Of a stretch of DNA of 64,000 nucleotides, positions 1 to 37,971 are shown piece by piece (position 1 is the first letter of the stretch; every line of letters begins with the position of its first letter). The stretch covers positions 115,513 through 179,512 of IMG/VR virus record IMGVR_UViG_3300020577_007160, one strand, 5' to 3'. Below the pieces are notes generated by a model, which saw only the letters and a program-made list of their open reading frames with translations, was not told the origin of the DNA and made no database searches. The stretch is from a virus (taxonomy: Duplodnaviria; Caudoviricetes). The position numbers and the translations under genes are program-made.

Positions 1-91
1 GCATTCCAGAATCAACAATTTCTAATGTGAAATTATTCGCTGTAAGCGGATGTCTTGGCTGTTCTTTTGGTCCAACTATCGGCTCTGCCAT
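1..91 (-). CDS. probable tail tube protein (gp19-like), N-terminal part, runs off window
   Basis: Not in ORF track. ATG at 91 reads MAEPIVGPKEQPRHPLTANNFTLEIVDSGM, resembling the P-x-x-x-x-N-F-x-[LV]-E-I start of T4 gp19-like tube proteins; lies downstream of the sheath gene. Confidence 0.5.
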   Translation of the reverse strand, partial: MAEPIVGPKEQPRHPLTANNFTLEIVDSGM

Positions 92-390
92 TTTTGTATT
101 CCTTTATTTTTGTATAAAACATCTATATATTTTTCTGGATAACGTAAATACATAGGATCTGTATTTATCAAAGTATTTTCGAGTTGACTAAATTGATTAC
201 GAGTTAGAATAAACATATCATATTTTTCATTAAATGCTGTATAACCAAATTGTTTGTCTATGTATTTTAATATAAAAGTTCGATCAGTTCTAAAATAGAC
301 ATAATTAGAATTATAGATCGGAGTAGGAATACTGGATTCTTTTATCCCAAGTTTTCTTTCAAGAATTCTGATTCTTTGTTCAACGTTCAT
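76..390 (-). CDS. leader-tagged small protein (candidate internal head protein)
   Basis: Begins MNVEQRIRILERKLGIKE; unique cargo. Confidence 0.7.
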   Translation of the reverse strand: MNVEQRIRILERKLGIKESSIPTPIYNSNYVYFRTDRTFILKYIDKQFGYTAFNEKYDMFILTRNQFSQLENTLINTDPMYLRYPEKYIDVLYKNKGIQKWQSR

Positions 391-721
391 AACTATATGA
401 AATATATTTCTTATAATTCTGAAAAATTACATTTTCTAGTCTGTACATCAATGCATTTATTTCATCCCTATCAAGGGAATATTCATCCTGAAGATACTCT
501 TTTATTTTAGATTCAGACCGTCTCAAGATAACATTATTCCATTTTCCATTTCTATCAATTATGTCAGAAATATAATATCCAGTAATTTCTTTATAATTAT
601 TTATAATTTCAAAAACAACTTGTTGAGTTTTTTGAAAACTAAGAATATTTTGTTCAGTTAATTTTCGTTGCTTTATTCCAAGTTTGTTCTCAAGAATTCT
701 AATTCTTTGTTCGATATTCAT
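380..721 (-). CDS. leader-tagged small protein (candidate internal head protein)
   Basis: Begins MNIEQRIRILENKLGIKQRKLTE. Confidence 0.7.
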   Translation of the reverse strand: MNIEQRIRILENKLGIKQRKLTEQNILSFQKTQQVVFEIINNYKEITGYYISDIIDRNGKWNNVILRRSESKIKEYLQDEYSLDRDEINALMYRLENVIFQNYKKYISYSYER

Positions 722-800
722 GATTTTATATCAATCCTTTAATATTTGTAATCTTTCAAGATTTTCAACAATTTTCTCTATAATCTAGAGATATAATTAT

Positions 801-1091
801 TTATTCAAAATCTTCTTTAAATTGAATCATATCAAACTTAGTATCTTGTAATACTTTTATTATTTTATCTAGTTTACTGGTATCGGAAATCCATTCAGTT
901 CTTCTTCTCTTTGTTCTTTTTAAATCTTCATATAAGTGATTTAATTGTATTGAAGATGTAGCCAATGAATGCATTATTAATTCTTGAGCCGTATCTCTTT
1001 CATATGCTCCTTCTTTTGGGGAAGAAAATTCTCTGGATTCAGATGATACTCTTTCCTCAAGTTTCAAAATTCTACGTTCTAAGTTTGTCAT
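801..1091 (-). CDS. leader-tagged small protein (candidate internal head protein)
   Basis: Start moved to ATG 1091 (MTNLERRILKLEERVSSE), whose upstream context copies that of the 1461 start. Confidence 0.7.
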   Translation of the reverse strand: MTNLERRILKLEERVSSESREFSSPKEGAYERDTAQELIMHSLATSSIQLNHLYEDLKRTKRRRTEWISDTSKLDKIIKVLQDTKFDMIQFKEDFE

Positions 1092-1472
1092 TGTTTTATC
1101 CTTATTATTTTCCAAATATCTTAGATTTAAATGAAAGAACTTTTTCTTTTACAAAATATTTTGCGATATTCTTTAGTTCTCTAGAAGATAAATTTGTATT
1201 TTTATAGTCTTTCATTAACTCTATTACCGAGTATTCAATTGAAATTGAAAGATCAGACCTAAATTCTTTTAGATCCCAATAAAAATCAATTGCATAAATT
1301 TGCCTTCTTTTGTCAATGCAACCTGAATTATTTACTTCCCAACCATAAATTAAAAACTGATTTTCTATTAGACGATTGAGTTGAGAACCTAAATCTTCTA
1401 AATTAGTTTCAGAATGAAACTTTTCCTCAAGTTTCGAAATTCTACGTTCTAAATTTGTCATTATTTTATCCT
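1052..1472 (-). repeat. 51-bp direct repeat (1052-1102 and 1422-1472) covering translation start and leader
   Basis: AGGATAAAAYAATGACAAAYTTAGAACGTAGAATTTYGAAACTTGAGGAAA, 3 mismatches, 370 bp apart. Confidence 0.9.
1105..1461 (-). CDS. leader-tagged small protein (candidate internal head protein)
   Basis: Begins MTNLERRISKLEEKFHSE. Confidence 0.7.
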   Translation of the reverse strand: MTNLERRISKLEEKFHSETNLEDLGSQLNRLIENQFLIYGWEVNNSGCIDKRRQIYAIDFYWDLKEFRSDLSISIEYSVIELMKDYKNTNLSSRELKNIAKYFVKEKVLSFKSKIFGK

Positions 1473-2857
1473 ATTATCTGAACATCAAACTCATTTGTGG
1501 ACGGTGCTACTGAAAACTTAAATGTCATCGTATTGGTAGTTGTTGATTCATTTGCTACAATAACCTGATCATAAGGGGAAACAACCCTACGCACAGAAGA
1601 TGTTACTCTACGAGTTCCTAGGTTGTGAGTTACGACAATATTTGTAGTTGAACCATCACCAATTTGAGCATTAAATATTCTTGTTCTATATGGGGATTTA
1701 GTTTGAAGAGCATCCCCTGATATTTCTATTGTTACATCATCAACAACAACATCTAACGTATTTCCAGTTTTGGAAAGAGCAGCACCTGCTGTAATCTGAC
1801 CTGCACCAGAAAATTGAATAAATGTTAATGATGTTGTATTTAATGTTATTGGAGCATTCGTAGAAAGTACCCACGATGAGTCAGCCCAAGTAGACCCTTC
1901 ATTTATGAAAACATAAGATCCTGGAGCAGCATCAGCAGAAGAATCAAAATCAACTGCACGAGTTAAAACAAATGGATTAGAACCATCACCAACAGTTGTA
2001 ACAATATAAATACCATTATCTGCACCAGTGGATTGATTCTTAACTAAAATTCTATCATTTACTGCTAGATTAGTTACTCCATCAATTCCGGTATCATTGA
2101 TGCTTCCATTGGCAGAAGCAGTCAATACATTGCTACTGCGAGTAGCAGATAAATTAGCAGTTGTTGCTACTCTTGATGCATCCTTAAATACTAATCCTTG
2201 CTTGGTTGCATCAACATAATCCTTTGTTGCTGCATCAGAACCTACGCTAGGAGCAGCCAATGATGTTATACGCTGCGAATTGAAGGAAACTGCACTCGTG
2301 GGTGCAGCCATCTGATCCAGACGACTAGTACGAACCTGAGTATCAAAATCCGATATCGTAGACGCAGTCTGAGATCCAGTATGGTTTGCTCTTGACAGGT
2401 AATATGATGCTGCCTGTGAATTCAGATTCGTAGCATTAGTGGCAGTAGATGCTGTTCCAGTTAAATTAGCAGTTATTGTTCCTGCTGAAAAATTACCAGA
2501 ACCATCACGTTTGACAATTGCACCATTCGTATTGGCATCAGTTGCTCCATCTAATTTTGTTTTATCTGCTGCGGACATTGATCCTGGATCCGACGTTGAA
2601 GCAGCAGATATTGTTATATTTGGAGTTGATCCCCCACTAGAAGCAATTGGAGCAGATGCAGTTACGGCTGTTACTGTTGATGGAGATCCAGAACTAACCC
2701 ACGTACTACCATTATAGTAGTACATTTGATTTGTTCCCGTATCATAGTATACCTGACCAGTGACAGGACTAGATGGAGGTGATGCTAAATTTTGAATTCT
2801 CGCATTTTGAAGTTCGTTTTTAACGAGATCAATAGAAGAAAGAAATGGTATTGACAT
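1466..2857 (-). CDS. virion fibre/decoration protein
   Basis: S/T/A/G-rich; GQVYYDT..YYNGSTW, DAATKDYVD, DRILVKNQ..NGIY and THNLG motifs typical of phage fibre proteins. Confidence 0.7.
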   Translation of the reverse strand: MSIPFLSSIDLVKNELQNARIQNLASPPSSPVTGQVYYDTGTNQMYYYNGSTWVSSGSPSTVTAVTASAPIASSGGSTPNITISAASTSDPGSMSAADKTKLDGATDANTNGAIVKRDGSGNFSAGTITANLTGTASTATNATNLNSQAASYYLSRANHTGSQTASTISDFDTQVRTSRLDQMAAPTSAVSFNSQRITSLAAPSVGSDAATKDYVDATKQGLVFKDASRVATTANLSATRSSNVLTASANGSINDTGIDGVTNLAVNDRILVKNQSTGADNGIYIVTTVGDGSNPFVLTRAVDFDSSADAAPGSYVFINEGSTWADSSWVLSTNAPITLNTTSLTFIQFSGAGQITAGAALSKTGNTLDVVVDDVTIEISGDALQTKSPYRTRIFNAQIGDGSTTNIVVTHNLGTRRVTSSVRRVVSPYDQVIVANESTTTNTMTFKFSVAPSTNEFDVQIIG

Positions 2858-2866
2858 AATTTTATA

Positions 2867-3358
2867 TTAACTTAAATATGCATTTCCTGCGAAGGAACTA
2901 GAAAACGTAACTACAGCCTGATTCGCATTCGTATGAGTTACCTGTCCATAAACTTTTGTACCAGAAGAATCAAATACTGCAACTGCAGGTCTATAACCAA
3001 GATTATGAGTTATTGTCCAAGTAGAATTAGGAACAGATTGACTATGAGAATACGTGAAATCAATTCCAGATTTATTGGTTATTTTTGACCAGTCTACCTG
3101 TTTTTTCCCGCCAGATTCTCCAGCAAAAAATCCGTCAATTACTGCTTTGTTATAATAATTAGAAAGATCTATTCCCCCTGCAATTATGGCTTCTAATTTT
3201 TGAGAGGAATAAGAACGATCATTTCTTATATTAACGTCGTCAATCATTTGACGTGGATCGATCACATCATACCTGTCCTGAGGATCAAACGGAGAATTAG
3301 GACTTTTATTGAAAATATCCAAATTCTGATCTGTAGACCGTTCGTTGAATACTACCAT
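2867..3358 (-). CDS. virion structural protein (THNLG beta domain)
   Basis: C-terminal STWTITHNLGYRPAVAVFD...VTFSSSFAGNAYL. Confidence 0.6.
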   Translation of the reverse strand: MVVFNERSTDQNLDIFNKSPNSPFDPQDRYDVIDPRQMIDDVNIRNDRSYSSQKLEAIIAGGIDLSNYYNKAVIDGFFAGESGGKKQVDWSKITNKSGIDFTYSHSQSVPNSTWTITHNLGYRPAVAVFDSSGTKVYGQVTHTNANQAVVTFSSSFAGNAYLS

Positions 3359-3391
3359 TTTATTGCTTAGTAAATATCTTGTGCTAAATTC

Positions 3392-3616
3392 TCAAATGAG
3401 AATTAATTCGATATCTGAAATAAGTTCTGAAACACGAGAATCTAATTTAAAAATTCTTAATTCCCCTTTATACTCTTTTTTAAGAAGAACTAATTTTTTG
3501 TAAAATTCATCTAATCTTTCATACTCATCATCTAACGCTCCGTTGCCCTCGTTGATTTTATTATTTTTACTAACTTTCGATTCTAAAAATCGAATTCTAC
3601 TTTCAATTGAATTCAT
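3392..3616 (-). CDS. leader-tagged small protein (candidate internal head protein)
   Basis: Begins MNSIESRIRFLESKVSKNNKINE. Confidence 0.7.
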   Translation of the reverse strand: MNSIESRIRFLESKVSKNNKINEGNGALDDEYERLDEFYKKLVLLKKEYKGELRIFKLDSRVSELISDIELILI

Positions 3617-3617
3617 C

Positions 3618-4181
3618 TTAATCCTGTTTTATCGTTAATTTAAAATACAATTTTGTACCAGTAAGAATTGACTTTGAAGACATATCATCTTTCGTGACAA
3701 AAATTCCAACCAATACTCTTGTATCTTTATAACTCTGAATATTCAGATTTATTTCCTTCAATTGAGCCATTGCAATAACTTCTGTTCCACGTTTTACTGT
3801 TTTATAATCTGTTGCTGCAACATCAATATACCCTGCGAAGTCTTCCCAGTCTAAACTCGCACCCATGTCAAACTTAGTGTTGATTGCTCCTGAAACATAA
3901 GTTGTGTCTGATGGAGTAAAGAATAACAGAGATCCTGGAATTTTATGGGGCGTAGTGACAGTATTGGCACTTTGTTCAAAAATATGGAGTTGTTTTATTT
4001 GAAACGTTCCCCCATAACGAATTGATGCACCATTGAATAACATTGCTTCTGCAGCAATTCGATCGGGTTCTAGGGTTATGTTTCCAACATATTCATATGA
4101 ACTATCAATATGAACAATCATCCTCCCAAATTTTCCACGGTAATTCCTGGCATACCCTTCGTTGTTTTCTGTTGCTGACAT
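3618..4181 (-). CDS. hypothetical protein, probably structural
   Basis: 187-aa beta-rich ORF tightly packed in the fibre cluster. Confidence 0.5.
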   Translation of the reverse strand: MSATENNEGYARNYRGKFGRMIVHIDSSYEYVGNITLEPDRIAAEAMLFNGASIRYGGTFQIKQLHIFEQSANTVTTPHKIPGSLLFFTPSDTTYVSGAINTKFDMGASLDWEDFAGYIDVAATDYKTVKRGTEVIAMAQLKEINLNIQSYKDTRVLVGIFVTKDDMSSKSILTGTKLYFKLTIKQD

Positions 4182-4184
4182 AAT

Positions 4185-5633
4185 TTAACTTAGTGCAATA
4201 GGAATTATTCCGGCTTGAACTTCTTTACCATAGGTATCACACCTATCAATATTTATATAACCATAAGATAATGATAATGGTGGTTGGATTGCCATAGGTA
4301 GATTATGCTTAACTTTTATTTCAATATAGTCTCCGAGTTCCAAAACAATCCGATCTGTACCCTGACATGAAGACCGAAAGTGATAATTGTTATCGGGTTG
4401 TAATCCTGTAATTACGCCAATATCATAATCAAGAACAGAATATTGGAGACCATTACGAAATAACCCATACCTAATATTGTATTCTGTTCCTGTTCCTAAT
4501 CCATCATTACCATAATCAAAAACATAGAAAAAACTAATAGTATATATTCCAGGAACCTGTGGATAAAATTTCCATTTTGTAGAAGTCTTATAAACAAGGT
4601 CTCCACGAATTACTTCAACATAATTGAATAATAGAGTACTCCAAGCACCAAAATTAAATGTTTGAGCAGGATTAGCAATCCAACGGACATTAACTCCCAT
4701 ATCAAAGAAATATTCTTCTGGAGGAAAGTTCAAAATATCCCAATGAATTGTTCCAATTTCTGTTAATAATTCTCCTATATCTTGTTCACTATTAAGAACA
4801 AGATAATCATCATAATTCATGAACCTTCTTCCTTTAAAATAAAGGATTTGCCCCTCAACATAAAATCCACTAATAACATCAAAATTATCATGAGAATGAG
4901 AAAATTTTCTCAATACTTCCAAGTAATTTACTATAGCAGATTTAAACTTGTTGAATTCTATTTCAGATAATAATTCAGTATGAGTATGTTCCCTAGGGGG
5001 AAACTGAGAAGGTACGTTCTTTATATCTTGATATGCTACTGGGATTTGATTTCCTACTGAACCATCAGGATTTATATAAGAAGACTTTCTCATATAATTT
5101 TCCAGAATGGATGCTAATTGTTCCTGAGTTACTAAGTTCGATGGTAATTGTAATTTCTTGTCAGCAATTTGATATATCTTTATATCTAAAGAAGAAATAG
5201 TTAAAGCAATTGATTTAAATATTTCATGACTGAATGCTAAATTAAAATGATCTGCTTTATTGAGGTAAATCTCAAAATCATATTCTTTTGTTAAATCAGT
5301 AGTATTACTAATTACTCCGCTTCCATTTAAATTATATTCTATTCTATCCAAAAGACCTTGATAAATTCCATTAATATATTTTAATACTAATAAAGCAATA
5401 GTAGTATTCGCAAGGTCTAATAACGCATTTATACTAAATACAAACTTTAATTTAACATGGTAATACCCACCTTCAAGACTCGAATAAATAAAAGGTATAT
5501 TCTGAAGTAAATTATTAGCATTATACGTTTGCTTCAATGGCAGAAATATGTCATGACCTTCTCCCAATCTCTTAGGAATAAGCATTGACAAATTTGAATC
5601 AGAATAATTATGAACTAATAATTCGTCTCTCAT
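4185..5633 (-). CDS. fibre/receptor-binding protein with C-terminal C1q/TNF-like domain
   Basis: PSQFPPREHTH and HSHD HxH fibre motifs; C-terminal F-x-P-x-V-P-G-I-Y...LFRNG...LELGDYIEIKV C1q-like pattern. Confidence 0.6.
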   Translation of the reverse strand: MRDELLVHNYSDSNLSMLIPKRLGEGHDIFLPLKQTYNANNLLQNIPFIYSSLEGGYYHVKLKFVFSINALLDLANTTIALLVLKYINGIYQGLLDRIEYNLNGSGVISNTTDLTKEYDFEIYLNKADHFNLAFSHEIFKSIALTISSLDIKIYQIADKKLQLPSNLVTQEQLASILENYMRKSSYINPDGSVGNQIPVAYQDIKNVPSQFPPREHTHTELLSEIEFNKFKSAIVNYLEVLRKFSHSHDNFDVISGFYVEGQILYFKGRRFMNYDDYLVLNSEQDIGELLTEIGTIHWDILNFPPEEYFFDMGVNVRWIANPAQTFNFGAWSTLLFNYVEVIRGDLVYKTSTKWKFYPQVPGIYTISFFYVFDYGNDGLGTGTEYNIRYGLFRNGLQYSVLDYDIGVITGLQPDNNYHFRSSCQGTDRIVLELGDYIEIKVKHNLPMAIQPPLSLSYGYINIDRCDTYGKEVQAGIIPIALS

Positions 5634-5641
5634 GCTACCTT

Positions 5642-5678
5642 AAAATAAAAGGGATCTCCATTTTCAAGAAGATCCCTT
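5642..5678 (-). terminator. intrinsic terminator
   Basis: AAGGGATCT/AGATCCCTT stem followed by a T-rich tail. Confidence 0.75.
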
Positions 5679-5721
5679 GTCAATTAACAATTGAAAATTA
5701 AAACTTCTAATAAAATAAGAA

Positions 5722-6156
5722 TTAATGTTGGTTTGCGTAATTAACAATGTAATCTGAAATCCAAGAACAATCTCCGAATCTTAGTCTCCACATCGCCATT
5801 TTTCCTAAATCCGCGGGAAATGGTTTATTAAAAACAAGAGCAATATCGGAACGACCACCAGAAGTCTTAAGAAGATAAGCTCCTCTGAATAATTCACTTG
5901 GGGATTTTGAGGTTGCAATATCTTCGTCGAATAACATTTCAGAAACTCCGTCGATCCATTCATTTGGATTTCCCCCTGCTCCCAAAAGAACAATCCCCTT
6001 AGAATTAGATCTTTCCATAAGATTTTCAAATCTATAAAAGTTGATAGGTTTGATATTCCAATTGGAATAATTTCCTCGCAAAGTTTCTACAACTTTTCTA
6101 GTATTAATTCCTATTTTTTCTTCTAATCTACTTATTCTGCGTTCTAAGTTTGTCAT
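5722..6156 (-). CDS. leader-tagged protein with globular cargo domain
   Basis: Begins MTNLERRISRLEEKIGINTRKVVE; cargo GIVLLGAGG..EWIDG...GKMAMWRL...WISDY. Confidence 0.75.
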   Translation of the reverse strand: MTNLERRISRLEEKIGINTRKVVETLRGNYSNWNIKPINFYRFENLMERSNSKGIVLLGAGGNPNEWIDGVSEMLFDEDIATSKSPSELFRGAYLLKTSGGRSDIALVFNKPFPADLGKMAMWRLRFGDCSWISDYIVNYANQH

Positions 6157-6176
6157 CGGGTTTTAAAATTAAAAGA

Positions 6177-7655
6177 TTAAACAACATTAACGTCAAACCC
6201 ACCAACCATTTGAACAAGATTAACGTAGACTGTTTCAGCAACTTCTGCGAAGTTCATATAAATGTCAACGACTAACTGACGATTCTGACGAACATTCACA
6301 TCATTGTTTGTTGCATCACAAGTCACCCGAACATTATTATCATATCCATTTTCGCGTTCAAACATCCCCTTTGTGAATTGAGACGATAAGAATATATTTA
6401 TAGCATTTTGAATCTGAGCTCGTGTGCGATCATTATTCTGACGTTGTTCGTATTCTCCAAGAGTTTGACGAAACGTAGAAATCAAGAAATTGATTGAACG
6501 TCGAATATGGATAGAATAATGTTTCGATGTTGTGGAAAGAGTTCTTGAGGTTCGGGTAACAAATCCCTTACCTTTATAATACTGAATAACATTCCAACCA
6601 TTGGTATGAACCATTACTTCAATAGCGGAATTCGACAATTCATATTTTTGTCCTAGAACACCAAAAATTGAGGCTCTCAATCCTGCAGGTGGTACGAAAG
6701 CATTACCACCCTCCGAAATGCATTGACGAATATAATATGCTCCGATAACGCCTCCCAAATTCGGAATCCATTGCTGTGCCCCTCCAGAGAAATAATTAGC
6801 AACTTTAGTCCAGTTGAAATATCCTGCTAAGAAAGATTTACTTATATTCAAAGCAGAATATGTTGTTGACAAGTCTGAAGTAGTAGAAGCATATGTTGCA
6901 GCAATCAATCCCATGCAGTCGTTTCTACCAGAACAATATGTTTCCAATGCCTGATGATCTGTCAATGCCGTCCATTCTGGTGCGAACAGCATTTGAACAG
7001 AATAGTTATCTAAATAACCATATTCTGTTGCTGATAAATTAGTAGGAGCAGTAGGATTTGTACCAGTTGCCAATGCTGTTTTTGTGCATGCTGCAAGAGT
7101 GTAGGATCCAGTAATGACAGCTTTTACGTAACGACTCTGGGATTGAAGAGTCCCTTCAATTGTGCCAGTAGTCAATCCTCCAATGGACTCTACTAAAACA
7201 TCAGAACCTGAAGTAGAATCATAAACATTGCATTTCCACGCTGAGCCATCAGCAACAACCTCTACCTTATAATTATTAGTATAAGTCCCTTGGGACTCAT
7301 CCCCATAATATGCTGCTGTGAATGTTATCTGATTCGGGGATGTTCCAAAGGCAATTACACCACCTGTGCCCAATGCACCTGAATTCGCAGGACGCAGGCA
7401 ATATACATTAATATCATTAGGAGCAGCGTTCGCAAATAATGCTCTTATTTCATAATAAGAAACTAATTGGGATGCCGTAGTAACCGGACCAAAAATTATT
7501 TCATAATCTTTTAAAGATGAAATAAAAATGACCTTATTTACTGGTCCGCGTAATGATTTAACAATTACCCCTACGTTAGTTATATCTGCAGGAGTTAGCA
7601 CCGGACTGCTTGGTCCGGCTAATTCTCTAACTTGTAATCCAATAGGTTGTGCCAT
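6177..7655 (-). CDS. contractile tail sheath protein (gp18-like)
   Basis: RGPVNK..ISS..YE.IFG N-terminus, PPAG, IHIRR, VTCDATNN, AETVYV C-terminal sheath motifs. Confidence 0.9.
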   Translation of the reverse strand: MAQPIGLQVRELAGPSSPVLTPADITNVGVIVKSLRGPVNKVIFISSLKDYEIIFGPVTTASQLVSYYEIRALFANAAPNDINVYCLRPANSGALGTGGVIAFGTSPNQITFTAAYYGDESQGTYTNNYKVEVVADGSAWKCNVYDSTSGSDVLVESIGGLTTGTIEGTLQSQSRYVKAVITGSYTLAACTKTALATGTNPTAPTNLSATEYGYLDNYSVQMLFAPEWTALTDHQALETYCSGRNDCMGLIAATYASTTSDLSTTYSALNISKSFLAGYFNWTKVANYFSGGAQQWIPNLGGVIGAYYIRQCISEGGNAFVPPAGLRASIFGVLGQKYELSNSAIEVMVHTNGWNVIQYYKGKGFVTRTSRTLSTTSKHYSIHIRRSINFLISTFRQTLGEYEQRQNNDRTRAQIQNAINIFLSSQFTKGMFERENGYDNNVRVTCDATNNDVNVRQNRQLVVDIYMNFAEVAETVYVNLVQMVGGFDVNVV

Positions 7656-7684
7656 GGTTCTTTATTTCAAATTATAAAAAATGT

Positions 7685-8074
7685 TTATCTATTCAATATT
7701 CTTTTCGCATAAGATAATCTAATACTCCAACCCGAAGCATCGGGGTCACCAGCACAGTCTTCATCATCCGTAACCCATGCCTGATCATCATCAATGGAAC
7801 AAATCCAAAGTTTTCCATAGGATCCAAAATCAACATAATCTCCAGGTTCTATTTCATCAATATCTATATTTTCTGAAAATCTAGATTCTTTTACCTTAGA
7901 TTTCTGTTTTTTCCATTTATTGAAGGCAATTATATATTCTCTTTCAGAATTAAATTTTCCTCCAGTTTCTTTTTCAAATTGTTTTAATTCTTTATCAGAA
8001 GCATCTTGATAAAGAGATTTTCCTTCTTTCAATACTTTTGATTCAAGTCTTCTGATTCTTTGTTCAATGTTCAT
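7685..8074 (-). CDS. leader-tagged small protein, possibly two cargo domains
   Basis: Start moved to ATG 8074: MNIEQRIRRLESKVLKE; internal KVKES/RFSE linker before an SH3/KOW-like segment (IEPGDYVDF). Confidence 0.7.
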   Translation of the reverse strand: MNIEQRIRRLESKVLKEGKSLYQDASDKELKQFEKETGGKFNSEREYIIAFNKWKKQKSKVKESRFSENIDIDEIEPGDYVDFGSYGKLWICSIDDDQAWVTDDEDCAGDPDASGWSIRLSYAKRILNR

Positions 8075-8075
8075 T

Positions 8076-8741
8076 TTAATTTCCTTCAACAAAAGTATTT
8101 GTATTAACTATAAAACTCAATATTCGTAGATAATCTACTGGTTTCGTAGAATATAACGAAGTCTCAATTTTAATTGTTTGAATTGCTCTGAATTTATTTG
8201 AATCCTCTTCCACATTTTGAGTAATTGGATCCATCTTAACAGTATGATTTATTCCAAAAAGATTTATATATTGTTGATTATAATCATCTTCCACCATCTT
8301 ATAATACAATAAATCTTTTAATATTCGGTGATCAATCCAACTATCAGAAATTCCTTCAATTTGATATTGAAATGCTACTCTACGAATGGCTCGATGTTGA
8401 CTTGCGATATCAGTATCTTTATCAAAAGTGGATTCAGTATCAGTATAGGGCATTGTCTCTCTGAGATCTTCTTCATCCAAAGGAGAAACCAAAATAAACG
8501 GATATGTTAATTTTGGGTTCTGCCTAAGAATTGTTTCTACTGTTAATTGTTTTTCATATATGTTTGAATATCTAAATATTACCGGAACATATTGAGCCGG
8601 AACATTAGCATTAGAACCATCCAGTATCTCAAGATTTACTTTTGAAGTATCAGTTGAATCCAGAGAGACAATCCATTTGAAATATCTTGTTTGAAGGTAT
8701 TTCATGAACTCAATGTCTATTTCATAGATTTGAGTATACAT
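8076..8741 (-). CDS. probable tail completion/terminator protein (gp15-like)
   Basis: Position upstream of sheath; YVPVIF, YPFI and FQYQI pattern. Confidence 0.4.
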   Translation of the reverse strand: MYTQIYEIDIEFMKYLQTRYFKWIVSLDSTDTSKVNLEILDGSNANVPAQYVPVIFRYSNIYEKQLTVETILRQNPKLTYPFILVSPLDEEDLRETMPYTDTESTFDKDTDIASQHRAIRRVAFQYQIEGISDSWIDHRILKDLLYYKMVEDDYNQQYINLFGINHTVKMDPITQNVEEDSNKFRAIQTIKIETSLYSTKPVDYLRILSFIVNTNTFVEGN

Positions 8742-8764
8742 ATATTTGTTAATTATAAATCCAA

Positions 8765-8869
8765 TTAAATTTTATTAACAAATTCTTTTCCATCTTCTTC
8801 TAAATTTTTAAAATTTAAGTATTTCACTCTTAAATCAAATTTAATTGCTTCCCTTAATAAATGCCTCAA
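8765..8869 (-). CDS. possible 34-aa protein
   Basis: TTG start overlapping the upstream TGA (TTGA); MRHLLREAIKFDLRVKYLNFKNLEEDGKEFVNKI fills the gap. Confidence 0.3.
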   Translation of the reverse strand: MRHLLREAIKFDLRVKYLNFKNLEEDGKEFVNKI

Positions 8870-9297
8870 ATAAAATCTCGATTTAAAACTTCAACCTCAT
8901 AATTTTCTTTTTTTGAAGAATTAAAAAGATTTTTAACAGACCAAGCAATAGAAGCCATATCTAAATTATCTTTAATAGCATTTCCATCTTTATCTATCCA
9001 AATTTCCCCAAACGTTCTGTTGCTCCCATTTCCCCAATTAAAAATATTTCCGGAACATACTCTAAATTTAATTCCAGATGGGCTACTATAAAAGCGCATT
9101 TCTCCTAAATATTCTGCATATTTAATATTTTTTCTTTGTATCTTTTTTACAAAATACTGATATACATTTTCTGCAATTTCAGGAGTAGTTTTAGTCGCAT
9201 AATATTTGCCTGGAACAACTATATTATTCTGATGATTTAATCTTCCTTCTTTTAATATTTTTCTTTCAAGCCTCAAAATACGTTGTTCAATGTTCAT
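8866..9297 (-). CDS. leader-tagged small protein (candidate internal head protein)
   Basis: Begins MNIEQRILRLERKILKE. Confidence 0.7.
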   Translation of the reverse strand: MNIEQRILRLERKILKEGRLNHQNNIVVPGKYYATKTTPEIAENVYQYFVKKIQRKNIKYAEYLGEMRFYSSPSGIKFRVCSGNIFNWGNGSNRTFGEIWIDKDGNAIKDNLDMASIAWSVKNLFNSSKKENYEVEVLNRDFI

Positions 9298-9307
9298 TTT
9301 GGTTTCC

Positions 9308-10909
9308 TTAGATTTTTTGAGATAAAAATTTACTTACTCTACGTTTGTAAGATTCTTCTGTTTTAGGTTCTTCTGTTGGAGTTTCTTCAGCAGATGCTTC
9401 TGGTGTCTCTTCCTCTGTTGAGGATGTTTCTTCCGCAGAGTCCTCTACTGGGGGTTCAGTCATCATAGAATCATCGTCTTCAACTGGGGGAACTTCCATA
9501 TTGGCAGTTTCATCGAATTCTATTTCAATGATTGATTTACCAGTATCATCAGTAGAACTATGAATATTTTTTATTGGTTTATCAAAACTCAAAGAAAGAG
9601 ACTCATTTATTCTAGATGAAATCAATTTTTTGAATTCTTTCAAAACAACGCTTCTTTTATATTCGGGGTAATCACTGGCAACTTCTTCATATAATTGTGG
9701 AAGTTTTTTACGTTTTAAATAACGTTTGATCTCGTTTTCATTTACTTTGAAATATTTACGTAAACTACTACGTAATTTACTTTCTGTTTTACAAGATTCA
9801 TCTTCATAATCATTTTCATCATATTCTTCTATATCATCTGCTGATATTTCTTCTTCATCTCCGTCTTCATCTTCCATATCCCCAAAGTCATCAGAAGTAT
9901 CAATTTCATCCTCCATGTCTGCGTCGGTTTCTGAGTCATCATCCTCGTCATCTTCTGAGACTCGACGCTTATTTCTGCCAAGGCGTTTTTCTACTTCCAT
10001 AGATAAATCATCTATATCCATAGTATCTTCATCATTATCTTCTTCATCGTCATTATAGGATTCAATACCATCCTCTAACCCTTCATTACGACGAGATTCA
10101 TATACTTCCTCTGACCCCATTTGTCCCTTGCTACGCAAGCGAGTTAAAAGGGCATTCAAGGATGCGTCCTTCAATGATAAGTCTTCAGTTTTTAATGTGA
10201 AGAACAATTTAGAGTCACCTTCAGATGTTTCTGCAGACCGGAATCGAAAATGCATACCAGAAATAACATTAGTACGAACTTTCAATAAATTGTCTTCAAC
10301 AAGATTCAAAGTAAGGAATGACTTCAATTTATGTTTCAGAACTCGAGAATTTGCAGGACTGAGAATTTTAAATACGCAAATATCTCCATCAGCGACAACA
10401 AAGAATCGAACAAGTTTCCTTGCATTATCTGTGATAGCAAATAAATATGCTTTATCTGGATAATATCGTGCTATCTTTTTGAGAGATTTAAAATTTGAAG
10501 TATTCTTTAATGCAGACTCAGGATCACCAGGAAGAATACCATAGAATAATAATTGCACATTAGAAACTGTGAGACCTTCTTTAATATTCAAAGTCTTTTT
10601 TAATTTTGAATATGAATTTCCACTTTCTAAGATTCTATCTAATTTTTTCAAAAATGATTCAGTCTTCATAGTGTTATCTGTGACGTTTATTAAATGTTTT
10701 GTTTCCTGTTCAAATTCCTGCATATGATCTGCAGGGGTCAAATTAATTTTATCGAAACCATTATTTGTTAGATAATTTTTTAATGAATCCCCTGATATGA
10801 AATTCTTAATTTCTCCTTCGAGATTCACTGAATAAGAATTTCCCATTATAGCATCAATGGTTAAAATTCTACCGAGATTATCTACATATTTATCTTGTAT
10901 TTCGAACAT
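9308..10909 (-). CDS. acidic multi-segment head core/internal protein (putative)
   Basis: D/E tracts; many x-x-E-[SG] sites (RILES, NIKEG, RINES, KTES). Confidence 0.5.
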   Translation of the reverse strand: MFEIQDKYVDNLGRILTIDAIMGNSYSVNLEGEIKNFISGDSLKNYLTNNGFDKINLTPADHMQEFEQETKHLINVTDNTMKTESFLKKLDRILESGNSYSKLKKTLNIKEGLTVSNVQLLFYGILPGDPESALKNTSNFKSLKKIARYYPDKAYLFAITDNARKLVRFFVVADGDICVFKILSPANSRVLKHKLKSFLTLNLVEDNLLKVRTNVISGMHFRFRSAETSEGDSKLFFTLKTEDLSLKDASLNALLTRLRSKGQMGSEEVYESRRNEGLEDGIESYNDDEEDNDEDTMDIDDLSMEVEKRLGRNKRRVSEDDEDDDSETDADMEDEIDTSDDFGDMEDEDGDEEEISADDIEEYDENDYEDESCKTESKLRSSLRKYFKVNENEIKRYLKRKKLPQLYEEVASDYPEYKRSVVLKEFKKLISSRINESLSLSFDKPIKNIHSSTDDTGKSIIEIEFDETANMEVPPVEDDDSMMTEPPVEDSAEETSSTEEETPEASAEETPTEEPKTEESYKRRVSKFLSQKI

Positions 10910-10935
10910 CGTATTTTAGAGTTTAATATATAACG

Positions 10936-11379
10936 CTAGTCTGAAAATTTATGACTGATATCTATTTGACATATCAAATGAAGTGGAACATGAACTGATG
11001 GAATGAAATCAGCATACTCCGCTGACAAGATTTCATAACGTTCTGTTTCTTTGTTAAAGGGAAAGATTATCAAGTCTCCTCTTTGTATTTCTATGCCTTT
11101 TTCTTTTAACTGTCGGCAATTTAATCTAATTTGAATCTTGTTGGTTTTAACCCAAACACCTTCTTGCAATTCATTGATTTTCTTTTCTCGATCATAATCA
11201 GCATTTATTGGTATTAAATTACTACTATAAGTGCTTTTAACTCGCGTACCGAGAATTGAATGGATCTGAGAATGCTCTCGTTGAAATTGAGAAATATAAA
11301 TATAAGGAAAACGTTCAAACAACTGTAGTTCATTTTGTTCTACAAGATCTACCTCAGCTTCTGAAAACCATGTTTCCAT
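10936..11379 (-). CDS. neck/head-closure protein (gp14-like)
   Basis: RGDLIIFPFN...YEI matches the gp14 GDLIYFP...FEI motif; synteny. Confidence 0.6.
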   Translation of the reverse strand: METWFSEAEVDLVEQNELQLFERFPYIYISQFQREHSQIHSILGTRVKSTYSSNLIPINADYDREKKINELQEGVWVKTNKIQIRLNCRQLKEKGIEIQRGDLIIFPFNKETERYEILSAEYADFIPSVHVPLHLICQIDISHKFSD

Positions 11380-11625
11380 TTAGTATTTTAAAGATATATT
11401 ATATTCTTCTAATTTATCTTCTATCGTATTTGTAAGTTTATCTAAGTCTGATCTTATTCCAAATACACTAAAAGTTTTCACCCATTTAATTCTGAAACTT
11501 CCTAATTCTTTGTAACACTGAGCCAAAGATTCTTTATCTCTTTCTGATATATCACTTTCCCTTAAATTTCTTTTATTAGAAACTCTATTTTCTAATATTT
11601 TGATTCTTTGTTCTAGTGTTTTCAT
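11380..11625 (-). CDS. leader-tagged small protein (candidate internal head protein)
   Basis: Begins MKTLEQRIKILENRVSNKRNLRE. Confidence 0.7.
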   Translation of the reverse strand: MKTLEQRIKILENRVSNKRNLRESDISERDKESLAQCYKELGSFRIKWVKTFSVFGIRSDLDKLTNTIEDKLEEYNISLKY

Positions 11626-12122
11626 AGTAAATTATATTGTTGTTTCAAAATTTCAAATAAATGTTTAATATCCAAGAAAGCATCAGAATCAAAATGATCT
11701 TTCAATTTAAATTCTCGGGACATCACTCTCTTCGGATTTATTTCATCAATTCTTTTAGAATTTAATAAGTAATACTTAAAATCAAAAGTTGAGTACACTA
11801 GAACAAAATAGAAAAAATCATATTTAAGTGAGTTTTCAAATCCTAATAATTGAGAATCTGATAACATTCCAAGATGAAAATTTTCAGTTTCTGTATATTT
11901 AAATTCAATCAAGCAACACTTTGATCCATTGAATACAAACATGAAATCTGAAACCTGACCTGGAATCCTCACGCTTACTCTTTTACCACCTGTAAATCCA
12001 GAGAAAGAATCATAGAATCTTATTAACTGGATATTTCTTTTCTCGGTTTCTACTTTTAATTTCTGAATCAACTTACTTTCAAATTCTTTTCCTTTTTTCG
12101 CTTTAGCGGAACTTGGAGGCAT
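11622..12122 (-). CDS. Holliday junction resolvase, RecU/Hjc-like PD-(D/E)XK nuclease
   Basis: GKEFE...SDF...LIEFKYT...SQL. Confidence 0.75.
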   Translation of the reverse strand: MPPSSAKAKKGKEFESKLIQKLKVETEKRNIQLIRFYDSFSGFTGGKRVSVRIPGQVSDFMFVFNGSKCCLIEFKYTETENFHLGMLSDSQLLGFENSLKYDFFYFVLVYSTFDFKYYLLNSKRIDEINPKRVMSREFKLKDHFDSDAFLDIKHLFEILKQQYNLL

Positions 12123-13443: not shown

Positions 13444-14844
13444 TTACGAATAATTGATAACTGTTCCTTTAGCATACATCCGACTGTTGACCATTTTCTT
13501 GCCACCACTGGTGTAAAGACCACGACGAACAATCATGTCATCCAGGACAACTGGTTGAGTCGTGTACAATGGACGGTATGGAGCCCAAACGTATCCAGCA
13601 TACAAATAACCTTCACCTTTGTGACCAACTAAATAATCGTTAGCACCATAGCTAGGGTTCTTAATTACCAGGAATCTATTATCCAAAGTTCCGCACACAT
13701 ATGGACCAGAAAATGAGCCATTCATATTCATTCCTGACGATTCAAATTTACTCATACCTTCAATAATAGAAGCAGCATTAATACCAGCAATAATGAAATT
13801 GCCGGAAACCATTCTTGTCGAAGTATAAATTTGATTCGCAGATTGATTTATTTTATGAATAAATCCATCATAGTGTTCTTGTTTTGAAACACCCGTTGGT
13901 ACTGTTGCATCGAATTGTGTTGTTCCTGCAGCAGCCTGAACATATAAATCTTTCATTATCTGTTCATCAATTTCTGCACGGATAATTGCAGCCAGTGCTG
14001 CAACGAGTTCCGCATCTGCATCCTTACCATGGGCTTGTTGCAAGTCCCAAGCAGCATCCAACGTGTACAAGGCACGCAACTTGTAGGGTCGTGCAGTAAC
14101 AGTTGTTTGTGACAAATCAATGTCGATCTGCCCAATACCGGATGGTGTTTGTTCAGAGTCAAAATCATAGGTAGCAGTAATTGCGATGCTCGATGCTGGA
14201 GCAGAAGAGAAAACAACTGCCCATGCACCACTGGAATAATTGATAGTTCCACTGGAAATACCTGAACCAGAAAGCGTTCCCGAACCATTATCGGTAGCGG
14301 TAACGCTACCAGTCGTAATGGAAACAGTACCAGCACGAACAGGATAGTACGTCAGGTTACCAGAGAATGATGTTGTTACTGCATCCCCTGTGCCAAGGGC
14401 TTCTTCCTCAATCGTTTCCGTTGAGAAATTAAAACCTCCAGGTTGAAATCCTGTGTTCGCACCAATAGCAGTTGCGCCTGAGGCAATTTTACCCTTGGTT
14501 TGTCCGTACTTGAAATTCATGTAAAAGATTTCACCGGACTTCATTTTCAATGGTTGGATAGAAACAATTCTATCAGCAACCAGATTCGGAAGAATAGCAG
14601 TAACTAATTTGAACCCGTAATCAACAAATGTACCAGCATTTGTTGCACGAGTTGTTTCATCCATTCTTGACAACCAATTACGTGTTTCATTCAATGCATT
14701 GGCAACCGTAGCAACCATATGACGTGATGCTTCACGTCCAGTTTTTTCACGGATAACCCGTTGCATGCTTTTGATATACGGAGAAAATTCACGCTGTTCT
14801 GAGAGTTGTACGCCACCCTCAATAGCTTCATTAAGAAAATTCAT
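13444..14844 (-). CDS. major capsid protein (T4 gp23-like)
   Basis: PNLVADRIVSIQPL...GEIFYM, TARPYKLRALYTLDAAWDLQQAHG.DA..EL...EID, YVWAPYRPL. Confidence 0.95.
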   Translation of the reverse strand: MNFLNEAIEGGVQLSEQREFSPYIKSMQRVIREKTGREASRHMVATVANALNETRNWLSRMDETTRATNAGTFVDYGFKLVTAILPNLVADRIVSIQPLKMKSGEIFYMNFKYGQTKGKIASGATAIGANTGFQPGGFNFSTETIEEEALGTGDAVTTSFSGNLTYYPVRAGTVSITTGSVTATDNGSGTLSGSGISSGTINYSSGAWAVVFSSAPASSIAITATYDFDSEQTPSGIGQIDIDLSQTTVTARPYKLRALYTLDAAWDLQQAHGKDADAELVAALAAIIRAEIDEQIMKDLYVQAAAGTTQFDATVPTGVSKQEHYDGFIHKINQSANQIYTSTRMVSGNFIIAGINAASIIEGMSKFESSGMNMNGSFSGPYVCGTLDNRFLVIKNPSYGANDYLVGHKGEGYLYAGYVWAPYRPLYTTQPVVLDDMIVRRGLYTSGGKKMVNSRMYAKGTVINYS

Positions 14845-14861
14845 TGTTGTTTTCTAAATTT

Positions 14862-16403
14862 TTAAGACATTAGTTTATTCATAACCGCAAAAGTCAAATC
14901 GTCTTCACCTGGATTATTCCCAATAGTTTCGTCGGTGCGATTAGTGATCTCCTTGCGACGAGGCTGGATTTTACTTCCGTGAATACCGTCACGAATTTCT
15001 CGCTTTTCTGCGCGTTGTTCTACCCTGTCCTCTGGTAGTGCGGATTCTCGGGTTTCCTGTTGTTGGCTTTGGGCAAGTTTTCGTTTTGACTGAATAATCA
15101 TTTTTCTGGCTTCCTGTAACAAAGAAGTTAGTTCAGAAACCTGATCTTTTAAATCTGCGTTTTCTTTTAGTAAGGTTCTAGTTTTATTTTTAGTAGATTT
15201 TATTTCCTCAGTTAAATCTTGGAGTTGTTTTTCAAATTTTGAATTAACTGTTCCAATTTTATGCTCTTTTACTTCCAGGGTTTCTTTGACAGATTCAATC
15301 TCTTCATTTAAATTTCTGATTTCTTCATCCTTATCTTCTAATTCGGATAAAGATTCCCGCATTCTTTCTAAGGTTGATTCTGAAGTTTCTAATTTATTTT
15401 CATAATTTTCAATATTCTTGACCAGACCTTCTACGAGAGACAGTGATCGCTGATACTTACTTGTAACACTGTTATACTTAGATTCTAAAAATTTATAATC
15501 TTTTTTAAAGAGATTAAATTGTTCAGTTTTATTTTCGAGTAACTGATTGCCCTGAATTAAAAGATCCTTTGCTTCCTGATATCGTTTTAACAGGATTTCA
15601 GATTTTGATAATAATTTTGTATTAATATTCTTAACTTCAGAAACACCAGTATTGACTCTATTAATTTTAGATTTTAATTCCGCGTTCTCACGAATCAATG
15701 CAACATTAGCTGCTAGTTTTTCTTTATATTTTTCTAATATCTTACCTAATTTTATTCCAGTAGATAAATTAGATTGTTTTATATTTTCCATTGGTTCATC
15801 AGAAGAATGAATTGATTTCTCTGTGATAGATATAACTCTATTTAAAAGAGAAATATCAGAATTCGTTTTTAGATTATTTAATCCTCGTTTTATGGATTCT
15901 TTCATGACCTGTGGCACAGCTTCCGTGACAGCAGGATTGAGAGTTGTATCAAATGTTATGAGCTCAAAGTCTTTATCATCAACATAGCTCTCACCAGATT
16001 TTTCCACGATAGAACCTTCACCTCTGCTCGAAATACCAATCTGACAGCCATTCCTCAGAAACACTTCAAGTATTCCTCCTAGCGTTGGGTAGGGCATCAC
16101 TTCAGCTTCGCCCATAACATATCCGCCCTCAATGAAAAGATCCGTAATAATGAAAGCACTTTTTTCAATATCAATATCCCGATATTCGGGATGTTTCAAT
16201 TCACCAAGAATCTGACGTTTTTCTAAGCGTTCCCGCACTGACTTAGAATTAACAACACTTTCCCACAACTTACTGGAATATATTCTTCCATTCTCAGTTT
16301 TATGATCTAACTTAGCAAAAACACCTCTGAACTTCAGAGGTTTTCCTGCTTGACTTTCTAAAATTTTTATTCGGGTATTGAGATTGGTTTCGACTAATAA
16401 CAT
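14862..16403 (-). CDS. prohead protease (gp21-like) fused to coiled-coil scaffold
   Basis: NGRIYS, GELKHP (His), GISSRGEGS (Ser), ITFD..NPA; about 300-aa coiled-coil C-terminus. Confidence 0.9.
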   Translation of the reverse strand: MLLVETNLNTRIKILESQAGKPLKFRGVFAKLDHKTENGRIYSSKLWESVVNSKSVRERLEKRQILGELKHPEYRDIDIEKSAFIITDLFIEGGYVMGEAEVMPYPTLGGILEVFLRNGCQIGISSRGEGSIVEKSGESYVDDKDFELITFDTTLNPAVTEAVPQVMKESIKRGLNNLKTNSDISLLNRVISITEKSIHSSDEPMENIKQSNLSTGIKLGKILEKYKEKLAANVALIRENAELKSKINRVNTGVSEVKNINTKLLSKSEILLKRYQEAKDLLIQGNQLLENKTEQFNLFKKDYKFLESKYNSVTSKYQRSLSLVEGLVKNIENYENKLETSESTLERMRESLSELEDKDEEIRNLNEEIESVKETLEVKEHKIGTVNSKFEKQLQDLTEEIKSTKNKTRTLLKENADLKDQVSELTSLLQEARKMIIQSKRKLAQSQQQETRESALPEDRVEQRAEKREIRDGIHGSKIQPRRKEITNRTDETIGNNPGEDDLTFAVMNKLMS

Positions 16404-31753: not shown

Positions 31754-32023
31754 TCAATCTTCTAATTCAGATTTAACTAAAATCTGAACTTGTCTTGGTA
31801 ATTGAGAAAATCGTATTCTTTTGCCTAAGTGGCTTCCTACCTGACCTGACGTATGTTGCCAGAATCCATGGGGCTGTGTTGGTTCTTCGGAACTCCCAAC
31901 CATCTGGTACATGCCATTACGCTCTCTTTCAAAATCGAGAAATACAATTGTGTATCTATCGAAAGATTCTGACCCTGCGTCATAAACAGTTATTTCATGA
32001 CCCATTACAATTTCTGAAGACAT
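31754..32023 (-). CDS. conserved-looking small phage protein
   Basis: YDAG...DRYTIVF...P.GF.QH...HLGKRI.F..LP pattern. Confidence 0.6.
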   Translation of the reverse strand: MSSEIVMGHEITVYDAGSESFDRYTIVFLDFERERNGMYQMVGSSEEPTQPHGFWQHTSGQVGSHLGKRIRFSQLPRQVQILVKSELED

Positions 32024-37528: not shown

Positions 37529-37552
37529 AAGAACGTCTAATGGTCTATAAAA
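37529..37552 (-). promoter_or_regulatory. bipartite phage promoter for rIIA
   Basis: TTTTA-N12-CGTTCTT. Confidence 0.6.
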
Positions 37553-37616: not shown

Positions 37617-37925
37617 TTAATAACCAGCTATATCCAATTTCTTTTTGATATAAGCAATTACCTTTTCAGCTACGTCTTCTTCCTCGTAATTCATTTGTCG
37701 TTTCCGCCAATAATCTAATTTTTTTACATCATCACTGGTAGCAATTTTTGAAAAATTACGTATATCAGTATAATCTAATTCATCATCGTTATGCTGGGAC
37801 ACATCTTGTAGAAATGCATCAATTCTACCTGGTAACTTTGAAGTTACATTAGCTTCCGCAATCCCTACTTTTTTCTCAAGTCTCTCTAATCTTTCAACTA
37901 GAGAAGAAGTTCTATTTCGCACCAT
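37617..37925 (-). CDS. leader-tagged small protein outside the virion module
   Basis: MVRNRTSSLVERLERLEKKVGIAE. Confidence 0.65.
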   Translation of the reverse strand: MVRNRTSSLVERLERLEKKVGIAEANVTSKLPGRIDAFLQDVSQHNDDELDYTDIRNFSKIATSDDVKKLDYWRKRQMNYEEEDVAEKVIAYIKKKLDIAGY

Positions 37926-37971
37926 TTCGATTTTCTTTCAATAAAGATTAAAATTATATATTATATAACGT

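Follow-up and report, generated by a model that had tools for sequence, protein, structure and literature searches.

About 30 genes in the 179,512-bp genome of an uncultured T4-like phage, some 27 of them clearly tagged, start with the same leader of 17-27 residues and continue into largely unrelated cargo. We propose that this leader may be a lineage-specific, coiled-coil-type capsid-targeting sequence, a reading to which we assign an even chance. Because the tag ends in a cutting motif of the head protease, the tagged proteins probably enter the capsid and undergo trimming there, as do the internal proteins of T4. In the proposed course of events, the leader would fold into an amphipathic helix, about two heptads long and with an R-h-x-x-h-E trimer motif (h, hydrophobic). 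This helix would dock the newly made protein on the coiled-coil scaffold at the core of the T4-type prohead. The gp21-type protease would then remove the leader at the following aliphatic-x-Glu, and the mature cargo, retained in the head, would exit with the DNA at the next infection. New cargos would be tagged through recombination, whether within the leader itself or by way of a cassette of promoter plus leader. The strongest competing reading takes the leader for a plain oligomerisation helix. Coordinates refer to the window, i.e. the whole stretch of 64,000 nucleotides that was analysed, unless they are given as genome positions.

Members of the leader family

Ten leader ORFs had been claimed for the window in the earlier note, and all ten are present on the minus strand, with both their coordinates and their leader starts confirmed. 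The leader of gene 1 (76..390, 104 aa), whose product belongs to no Pfam or PHROG family, ends in I-K-E followed by S-S, while gene 2 (380..721, 113 aa) carries a long form of the leader ending in L-T-E. Gene 3 (801..1091, 96 aa from the ATG at 1091) and gene 4 (1105..1461, 118 aa) have the junctions S-S-E, which is not of the aliphatic-x-E type, and H-S-E, respectively. In gene 5 (3392..3616, 74 aa) the leader ends in I-N-E before a G. Genes 6 (5722..6156, 144 aa) and 7 (7685..8074, 129 aa from the ATG at 8074) lie directly after and directly before a sheath gene, respectively. They are followed by gene 8 (8866..9297, 143 aa) and gene 9 (11380..11625, 81 aa), the leader of the latter ending in L-R-E before an S. 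Gene 10 (37617..37925, 102 aa) represents a subtype with an N-terminal S-S-L extension.

When the whole genome was searched, the relaxed motif R-[ILV]-x-x-L-E-x-x-h was matched 32 times in minus-strand ORFs, compared with 1.5 matches on average and at most 6 in shuffled proteins, and in 27 of these 32 ORFs the motif started at residues 5-15. A profile built from 25 leaders matched 30 places in the genome. The ten genes, though real, are therefore an undercount. The searches bore out the expectation that a leader profile would reveal more members, and the leader is nearly always N-terminal.

Outside this genome, the profile was run against 1.84 billion representative proteins, where all five new, non-self, family-like matches were N-terminal and had the same junction. 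The profile also matches repeats in the interior of coiled-coil proteins, fibre-like ones among them. Comparisons with GenBank phages, by tblastn with a 24-aa leader and by megablast with positions 1-12000, returned no match, and a scan for related loci with a single protein found none.

The leader peptide is conserved and resembles a short coiled coil

Across 25 aligned leaders, R6, L10 and E11 are invariant and hydrophobic residues are spaced 4-3-4. Arginine, hydrophobic residue and glutamate thus stand in the i, i+1, i+4, i+5 spacing of R-h-x-x-h-E within a heptad pattern, just as in the short trimeric coiled coils for which this motif has been described (PMC3653964). The leader motif differs from these in being followed by a conserved protease-type junction. 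At the invariant positions, four codons are used for arginine, six, from both leucine codon families, for leucine and two for glutamate; this synonymous variation shows that it is the peptide, rather than the DNA, that is under selection. For one tagged protein of the metagenomic contig L087, modelling suggests that residues 3-14 are helical and that the chain then runs as coil through the junction; this AlphaFold model had a pLDDT of 54, too low for a fold search. Complex prediction with an alignment of the protease scaffold and residues 1-60 of the protein encoded at 7685-8074 gave a score of 0.00, which speaks neither for nor against binding.

The leader ends at a protease-type junction

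The earlier note had the leaders end mostly at [ILV]-x-E. This holds for the majority, while three end in S-S-E, H-S-E or Y-S-E instead. Among 36 tagged proteins (27 from this phage and nine from L087), 33 have [ILVF]-x-E located 5-14 residues past the invariant L-E, as opposed to 25% in control N-termini. Note that these counts are not independent, because the leaders are homologous, and that h-x-E is a motif of low information within a Glu-rich helix, which we count against capsid targeting. The junction occurs in eight registers (offsets 5, 6, 7, 8, 10, 11, 12 and 14) and is followed by serine in 17 proteins and by glycine in five.

A tagged/untagged pair places the module boundary exactly at the predicted cut, and this is counted in favour of capsid targeting. 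The untagged member (31754..32023, minus strand, 89 aa) matches the cargo of the tagged gene L087:3330-3641 with 56% identity (E 4e-34), and the first position of the alignment pairs its residue 2 with the residue that follows I-K-E in the tagged protein. A second untagged homolog of the same cargo is P0051.

A T4-type head with a gp21-type protease

The genome encodes a T4-type head set of gp23 capsid protein, gp20 portal (Pfam PF07230, E 3e-24) and gp21/S77 protease. The gene at 14862..16403 (minus strand), described before as gp21-like, is indeed a gp21/Peptidase_S77 homolog by Pfam (PF03420, E 1.8e-18), PHROG (phrog_207, E 7e-34) and PDB (5jbl, E 3.8e-10) matches. Its product retains the catalytic His in E-L-K-H-P and the catalytic Ser in S-S-R-G and is fused to a scaffold-like coiled-coil tail of about 300 aa; the counterpart in Maribacter phage Molly is annotated as 'prohead core scaffolding protein and protease'. 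The protease itself starts with M-L-L-V-E, with L-V-E at residues 3-5, and this start is kept in all relatives. We liken this to the L-I-E in the N-terminal region of T4 gp21 (PMC9026906) and count it for capsid targeting. As a leader in its own right the N-terminus of the protease was dropped, as neither the arginine nor the L-E is conserved in its relatives; the weak resemblance to the leader, lacking such conservation, is counted against capsid targeting.

The major capsid protein is of the gp23 type (13444..14844, minus strand; Pfam PF07068, E 1.2e-52) and contains a candidate maturation cut, A-L-N-E followed by T, at residues 50-54. In the alignment its residue 80 pairs with residue 33 of mature T4 gp23, and L-N-E followed by T lies within about five residues of the equivalent of the T4 gp23 cut. 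The L087 capsid protein has A-L-R-E followed by T at the equivalent place.

Cargo and gene slots

By BLASTP, the cargo bodies are mutually unrelated except for two paralog groups, which the window contains only in part or not at all: six large leucine-rich-repeat proteins of 350-470 aa, and the product of 8866-9297 together with that of a stand-alone cassette gene at genome 80744-81163 (43% identity). Most cargos are small ORFans. Pfam, PHROG and further function searches with the cargos matched no known function, anti-defence or otherwise, and an ESM Atlas search with the protein encoded at 5722-6156 yielded no usable match. T4 internal proteins are uniformly basic. The predicted mature cargos range from pI 4.3 to 9.8 and from 41 to 456 residues and so, unlike the T4 internal proteins, are not all small and basic; the lack of a uniform pI is counted against capsid targeting. 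The same applies to the sheer number of about 30 species that would be packaged, leucine-rich-repeat proteins included, which would far exceed the three one-tag internal proteins of T4.

The contig L087, whose protease (P0006) is 47% identical to that of our phage, encodes nine tagged genes. Four of these occupy slots shared with our phage, among them the slots after (5722..6156) and before (7685..8074) the sheath gene; the flanking structural genes are conserved and the cargo is non-homologous. Such turnover of cargo at conserved slots is counted for capsid targeting. Neither a 190-kb relative whose protease is of the same family nor the closest cultured phage has the leader family; T4-type head assembly therefore does not need the tag, a point counted against capsid targeting. 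In a related strain, the joint of one contig begins at 11615, inside the leader of gene 9; stretches of positions 1-12000 without cover in run X1 were left out of the evidence.

Upstream elements and cassettes

Six members share a cassette: their similarity sets in about 60 nt upstream of the ATG, spans a 24-nt promoter-like element that is nearly the same in all, and breaks off precisely where the leader ends. Five leader genes are preceded by the 24-mer in exact or near-exact form. The promoter-like octamer GTTATATA is found ahead of about eight leader genes, seven times at a distance of 37-44 nt and once ahead of an interrupted leader ORF at genome 107074. Within the window it occurs at 37962..37969 (minus strand), starting 44 nt upstream of gene 10, and at 10927..10934 (minus strand), starting 25 nt before a structural-module gene for an acidic protein of 533 aa, where it is conserved ahead of the L087 ortholog. 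That stand-alone leader genes among the replication genes have GTTATATA about 40 nt upstream is counted in favour of capsid targeting, together with its place ahead of the structural-module gene in both phages. So is the distribution of the element ACGTTCT, which precedes 21 other genes and no leader gene. For the nine leader genes at 76-11625, neither a conserved upstream element nor upstream DNA in common was found, and scans of viral and metagenome contigs for the exact 22-nt cassette motif found none. The T4 late-promoter octamer TATAAATA occurs without strand bias (25 versus 27) and was therefore dismissed as a late promoter in this phage.

Alternative functions of the leader

Besides capsid targeting, the leader could be a portable oligomerisation module and nothing else: a short coiled-coil trimer through which small accessory proteins become multivalent in the infected cell, and which is neither used for packaging nor removed. 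We consider this explanation unlikely but serious. The invariant residues of the leader are exactly those of the trimerisation motif, R-I-x-x-L-E units recur as internal repeats in fibre-like coiled coils, and N-termini of the same type occur singly in four unrelated viral contigs; the latter two findings are also counted against capsid targeting. Relatives that possess the same protease and lack the leader family fit as well. However, an oligomerisation helix predicts neither the conserved h-x-E with its Ser/Gly junction in eight registers nor the strict N-terminal position, nor does it predict an untagged homolog that starts exactly at the junction. In addition, a stable free-standing coiled coil would usually be longer than two heptads.

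Alternatively, the leader might remain uncleaved and dock accessory proteins to a trimeric, fibrous structure on the outside of the virion, e.g. the neck, whiskers, fibre or head decoration. The nine members interspersed among genes for sheath, fibre-like or head-decoration-like and other structural proteins, along with the likeness of the motif to the repeat units of phage fibre coiled coils, would be in line with such a function. We nevertheless judge it improbable: about two thirds of the leader genes sit among replication and modification genes, the cargo of a given slot is not conserved between relatives, which would be unusual for structural parts, and the junction motif is left without explanation.

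It is very improbable that the leader serves as the recognition sequence of a modifying enzyme in the manner of RiPPs. The candidate enzyme would be the sole unclassified radical-SAM protein, encoded by the one such gene in the genome (20785-21672), which is missing in both relatives without the leader family. This co-absence is based on two genomes only, no SPASM domain or maturase family was detected at cut-off for the protein, and gene linkage is lacking, with the nearest leader gene 6 kb and most others 25-130 kb away from the radical-SAM gene.

Finally, the idea that the conserved unit is DNA or RNA, i.e. a recombination arm or translation-initiation region, with the peptide being incidental, draws on the six-member cassette and on the contig joint inside a leader and is largely refuted, hence hardly credible, given the varied codons of the invariant residues, the members in the window without shared upstream DNA and the peptide kept with other codons in L087; recombination is thus a plausible route for the spread of the tag and not the reason for its conservation.

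The predictions of capsid targeting that were tested at the level of sequence all turned out favourable. The proposal in the earlier note of a packaging tag for capsid loading is thus supported in part, by the T4-type head, the N-terminal leader, the enrichment of h-x-E, the L-x-E in the capsid protein, the exact tagged/untagged boundary and the cargo turnover.

Comparison with known systems

T4 gp21 cuts after L/I-x-E, and the only feature common to the T4 internal proteins is an N-terminal targeting sequence that is clipped off (PMC9026906, PMC3012670). In IPI, IPII and IPIII, this capsid-targeting sequence (CTS) is removed by the prohead protease gp21; Alt and other core proteins carry propeptides. 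The leader had been put forward as a different kind of packaging tag, but the concept is known, as reviews on T4 describe diverse internal proteins sharing only the CTS (PMC3012670, PMC9026906). New here are the sequence of the tag, its length, its coiled-coil character and the size of the family. Both systems have a head of the gp23/gp20/gp21 type, in both a short N-terminal peptide with an aliphatic-x-Glu end, the gp21 motif, is the sole shared part of unrelated, fast-evolving small proteins, and in both the cargo genes vary from one related phage to another (PMC9026906, PMC3012670). In contrast to the ten residues of the T4 CTS, the tag described here has 17-27, two to three times as many, and consists of coiled-coil heptads with the R-h-x-x-h-E motif; length and coiled-coil character set it apart. 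It is carried by about 30 genes, compared with three internal proteins with a shared CTS in T4, its cargos are not uniformly basic and include leucine-rich-repeat proteins, and many tagged genes lie between structural genes.

In the giant phages phiKZ, 201phi2-1 and SPN3US, many head proteins are cut after Glu by a diverged gp21 homolog, and families of paralogous ejection proteins occur (PMC9026906, PMC5694885). However, their propeptides are long and do not constitute one shared short tag, and their processing is backed by proteomics, whereas that of the tagged family is predicted from sequence.

The cassettes resemble the PeSL/moron units of T4-type phages (Arbiol et al. 2010, PMC2839356), in which an ORFan moves together with a promoter-like element, as may be the case for six to eight members here. 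In both cases the unit is placed among conserved core genes and recombination in conserved flanks is the likely mechanism of shuffling. In contrast to PeSL units, the conserved unit in our phage reaches into the coding region as a peptide tag under selection, and no upstream element is conserved among the nine members of the structural module.

Implications

It is possible, although we lean slightly against it, that the coiled-coil address tag loads about 30 proteins, leucine-rich-repeat proteins among them, and that the promoter-plus-tag cassette makes an injected effector of a captured ORF. If true, this would be among the largest sets of virion cargo known to carry a single tag in a T4-type phage and would provide a second, independent targeting peptide for putting foreign proteins into phage heads. 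Even if the leader is only an oligomerisation helix, it represents a clean case of one peptide module that recombination has spread to some 30 unrelated genes. Should the tag be a capsid address, it would offer a longer targeting peptide for comparison with the T4 CTS in protein delivery, and the tag plus h-x-E would become a rule for predicting virion cargo in uncultured T4-like phages. About one tenth of the phage genes would then encode proteins delivered together with the DNA, far more than in T4, and the hyper-variable ORFans between structural genes would be weapons for the first minutes of infection and not junk.

Size and conservation of the leader family

The virus record is a complete genome of 179,512 bp with direct terminal repeats, the window being its final 64 kb. 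It comes from an uncultured phage, and the source sample is wastewater. GC content is about 32%, and the minus strand carries almost all genes. An earlier note had located ten leader ORFs in the window and expected a profile scan of the genome to yield many more. All ten are present at those positions and start with the leaders assigned to them. A relaxed motif, R-[ILV]-x-x-L-E-x-x-h, has 32 matches among minus-strand ORFs genome-wide, compared with a mean of 1.5 and a maximum of 6 in shuffled proteins, and in 27 of these 32 matches it starts at residue 5-15. The A2 profile, built from 25 leaders, recognizes 30 places in the genome, and an unbiased all-against-all comparison of N-termini yielded components of 22 and 4 genes in this phage, while the largest component in the 190-kb relative G001 comprised at most 4. 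Set against shuffles and G001, the motif counts, profile matches and N-terminus components thus establish that the family is real and about three times as large as first reported; it takes in roughly a tenth of the phage's genes.

In the leader alignment, Arg, Leu and Glu are the sole invariant residues, and they correspond to the Arg-h-x-x-h-Glu trimer motif (PMC3653964). Hydrophobic residues are spaced 4-3-4. As the invariant Arg, Leu and Glu are encoded by 4, 6 and 2 different codons, respectively, selection acts on the leader peptide.

Promoter-like elements and leader cassettes

In six members residing outside the window, the leader is part of a larger shared block, together with a promoter-like element and a short untranslated stretch. 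The element is near-identical over 24 nt, with the core GTTATATA, and DNA likeness among the six ends abruptly at either end of the block. The core shows a strand bias of 18 versus 1, begins 37-44 nt 5' of the start codon in seven leader genes and also occurs upstream of an interrupted leader ORF (genome 107074). In this latter region (genome ~106.9-107.1 kb; L006:6928-7076), the ORF begins 3' of the core and hits a stop within a CT-repeat run, and the peptide resumes in a different frame. The core also starts 25 nt 5' of the start codon of a gene within the tail/neck block (9308-10909), which encodes an extremely acidic, Asp/Glu-rich protein of 533 aa. Gene and element are both kept (14536-16084) in L087, a syntenic 21-kb metagenomic contig with a 47% identical protease and nine leader genes. 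The acidic protein, for which no family match was found, might be another scaffold-like or internal protein.

A different promoter-like element, ACGTTCT, occurs genome-wide with a strand bias of 53 versus 11. It lies upstream of 21 genes, with no leader gene among them. Examples in the window are found at 37536, 40582, 45893, 52312, 55536 and 61156, often 3' of a hairpin and T-T-T-T-T-A-T-A-G-A, and no gene in the structural part, i.e., the window's first 37 kb, was found to have the element upstream. This distribution of elements would fit co-regulation of the leader genes with the structural genes.

Head machinery and the leader-cargo junction

The window encodes a gp23-type capsid protein (13444-14844), a gp20-type portal (25253-26911) and a protease (14862-16403; protease domain at residues 1-200) that carries the catalytic His and Ser and has a coiled-coil tail of about 300 residues. 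The latter had been called gp21-like in the earlier note, and its assignment to the gp21/Peptidase_S77 family was upheld. Maribacter phage Molly, the cultured phage closest to this one (sheath identity 31%), has a syntenic gene annotated as 'prohead core scaffolding protein and protease'. Among the head genes lies one for a homing endonuclease of GIY-YIG/NUMOD3 type (17793-18734); in L087, two GIY-YIG-like genes are located upstream of the protease.

T4 gp21 cleaves after L/I-x-E, and the ten N-terminal residues of IPIII are enough for prohead loading. The diverse T-even internal proteins have only this targeting sequence common to all (PMC9026906, PMC3012670). In the capsid protein, residues 50-54 read A-L-N-E followed by T, a candidate maturation cut. 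When the protein is aligned with mature T4 gp23, its residue 80 pairs with residue 33 of the T4 protein. This places the T4 cut within about 5 residues of the site, and the L087 capsid protein has A-L-R-E followed by T in the same place. The protease itself starts with M-L-L-V-E in all relatives, resembling L-I-E close to the N-terminus of T4 gp21 (PMC9026906). Its likeness to the leaders is not conserved and was dropped as an argument.

Of 36 tagged proteins (27 from this phage and 9 from L087), 33 have [ILVF]-x-E 5-14 residues past the invariant L-E (offsets 5, 6, 7, 8, 10, 11, 12 and 14), compared with 25% of control N-termini, although these counts are not independent because the leaders are homologs. 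Directly after the Glu of this motif, 17 proteins have Ser and five have Gly. Note that h-x-E is a weak motif within a Glu-rich helix. The tagged protein L087:3330-3641 has an untagged homolog in the window (31754-32023, 56% identity), and the alignment of the two starts at residue 2 of the untagged protein, which faces the position just past I-K-E in the tagged one. A second untagged homolog of this cargo was found in public data.

Cargo proteins and their turnover

Neither Pfam nor PHROG gave a function for any of the 20 members tested. By BLASTP the cargo bodies are unrelated, except for one pair (window 8866-9297 and genome 80744-81163) and six large paralogs of 347-471 aa (L004:6557-7867, L004:11195-12529, L005:16465-17772, L006:1672-2826 and L006:12558-13973, all on stretches of the same genome, and genome 99299-100342). 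The C-terminal halves of these six consist of Cys-containing leucine-rich repeats of 22-23 residues, modeled by AlphaFold with a pLDDT of about 90. Their best Foldseek matches are the LRR domains of SspH1, IpaH and YopM, the lowest E value being 4e-3, so that no match reached the cut-off of 0.001. For the N-terminal domain, the only matches are to PHROGs without an assigned function.

Four of the nine L087 leader genes occupy slots also used in this phage, namely those following the RecU-like gene and the acidic 533-aa gene and those on either side of the sheath gene, and in none of the four are the cargos homologous. The Holliday-junction-resolvase/RecU-like gene (phrog_843; 11622-12122) lies within the structural module, and phage Molly has 'recombination protein U' in the syntenic place. 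A single low-depth contig (2.6x) from X1, a sequencing run with a related strain, joins window 9308 to 11615. Here the stop of the 533-aa gene is followed by 14 other letters with a new ATG and then by leader codon 4 of the 81-aa gene. The related strain seems to carry the 81-aa cargo in the slot held here by 8866-9297, weak evidence for slot exchange as it comes from one contig only.

Occurrence in other phages

The earlier note had expected further members to carry the leader always at the N-terminus. Among 1.84 billion representatives the leader profile gave 28 matches at E ≤0.001, and 24 of these are N-terminal, 19 in this genome or L087 and five in new metagenomic proteins, each of the five having a junction of this kind as well. 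The remaining four are internal, in multi-repeat coiled coils of unrelated proteins. The family is absent from the complete 190-kb relative (protease 38% identical), four other IMG/VR records, about 160 distant protease loci and phage Molly. Such a head type therefore works without it. Each of four unrelated viral contigs in IMG/VR (L177-L180, GC 35-48%) encodes a single small protein that starts with M-N-I-E-Q-R-I-x-x-L-E and continues into a longer coiled coil. These single occurrences fit a generic N-terminal coiled-coil cap, which is thus not unique to this lineage.

Function of the leader

The leader is most likely a lineage-specific, coiled-coil-type capsid-targeting sequence that would be removed by the gp21-type protease, a reading to which we give an even chance on the present comparisons. 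Ranked second, and rather doubtful, is a portable oligomerisation helix. Very improbably, the leader is the recognition sequence for a radical-SAM maturase: the genome does have one unclassified radical-SAM gene (L002:785-1672, genome 20785-21672; 295 aa), with no NCBIfam model near cut-off and no counterpart in two tag-less relatives, the 190-kb phage and Molly, but it is not linked to the tagged genes.

As a capsid-targeting sequence, the leader would follow an idea already established for the T-even internal proteins. Those of the T4 type are basic, whereas the predicted mature cargos here are not basic as a class. What is new is the tag itself, its scale, its spread via promoter-leader cassettes and slots between structural genes, and LRR proteins as cargo.
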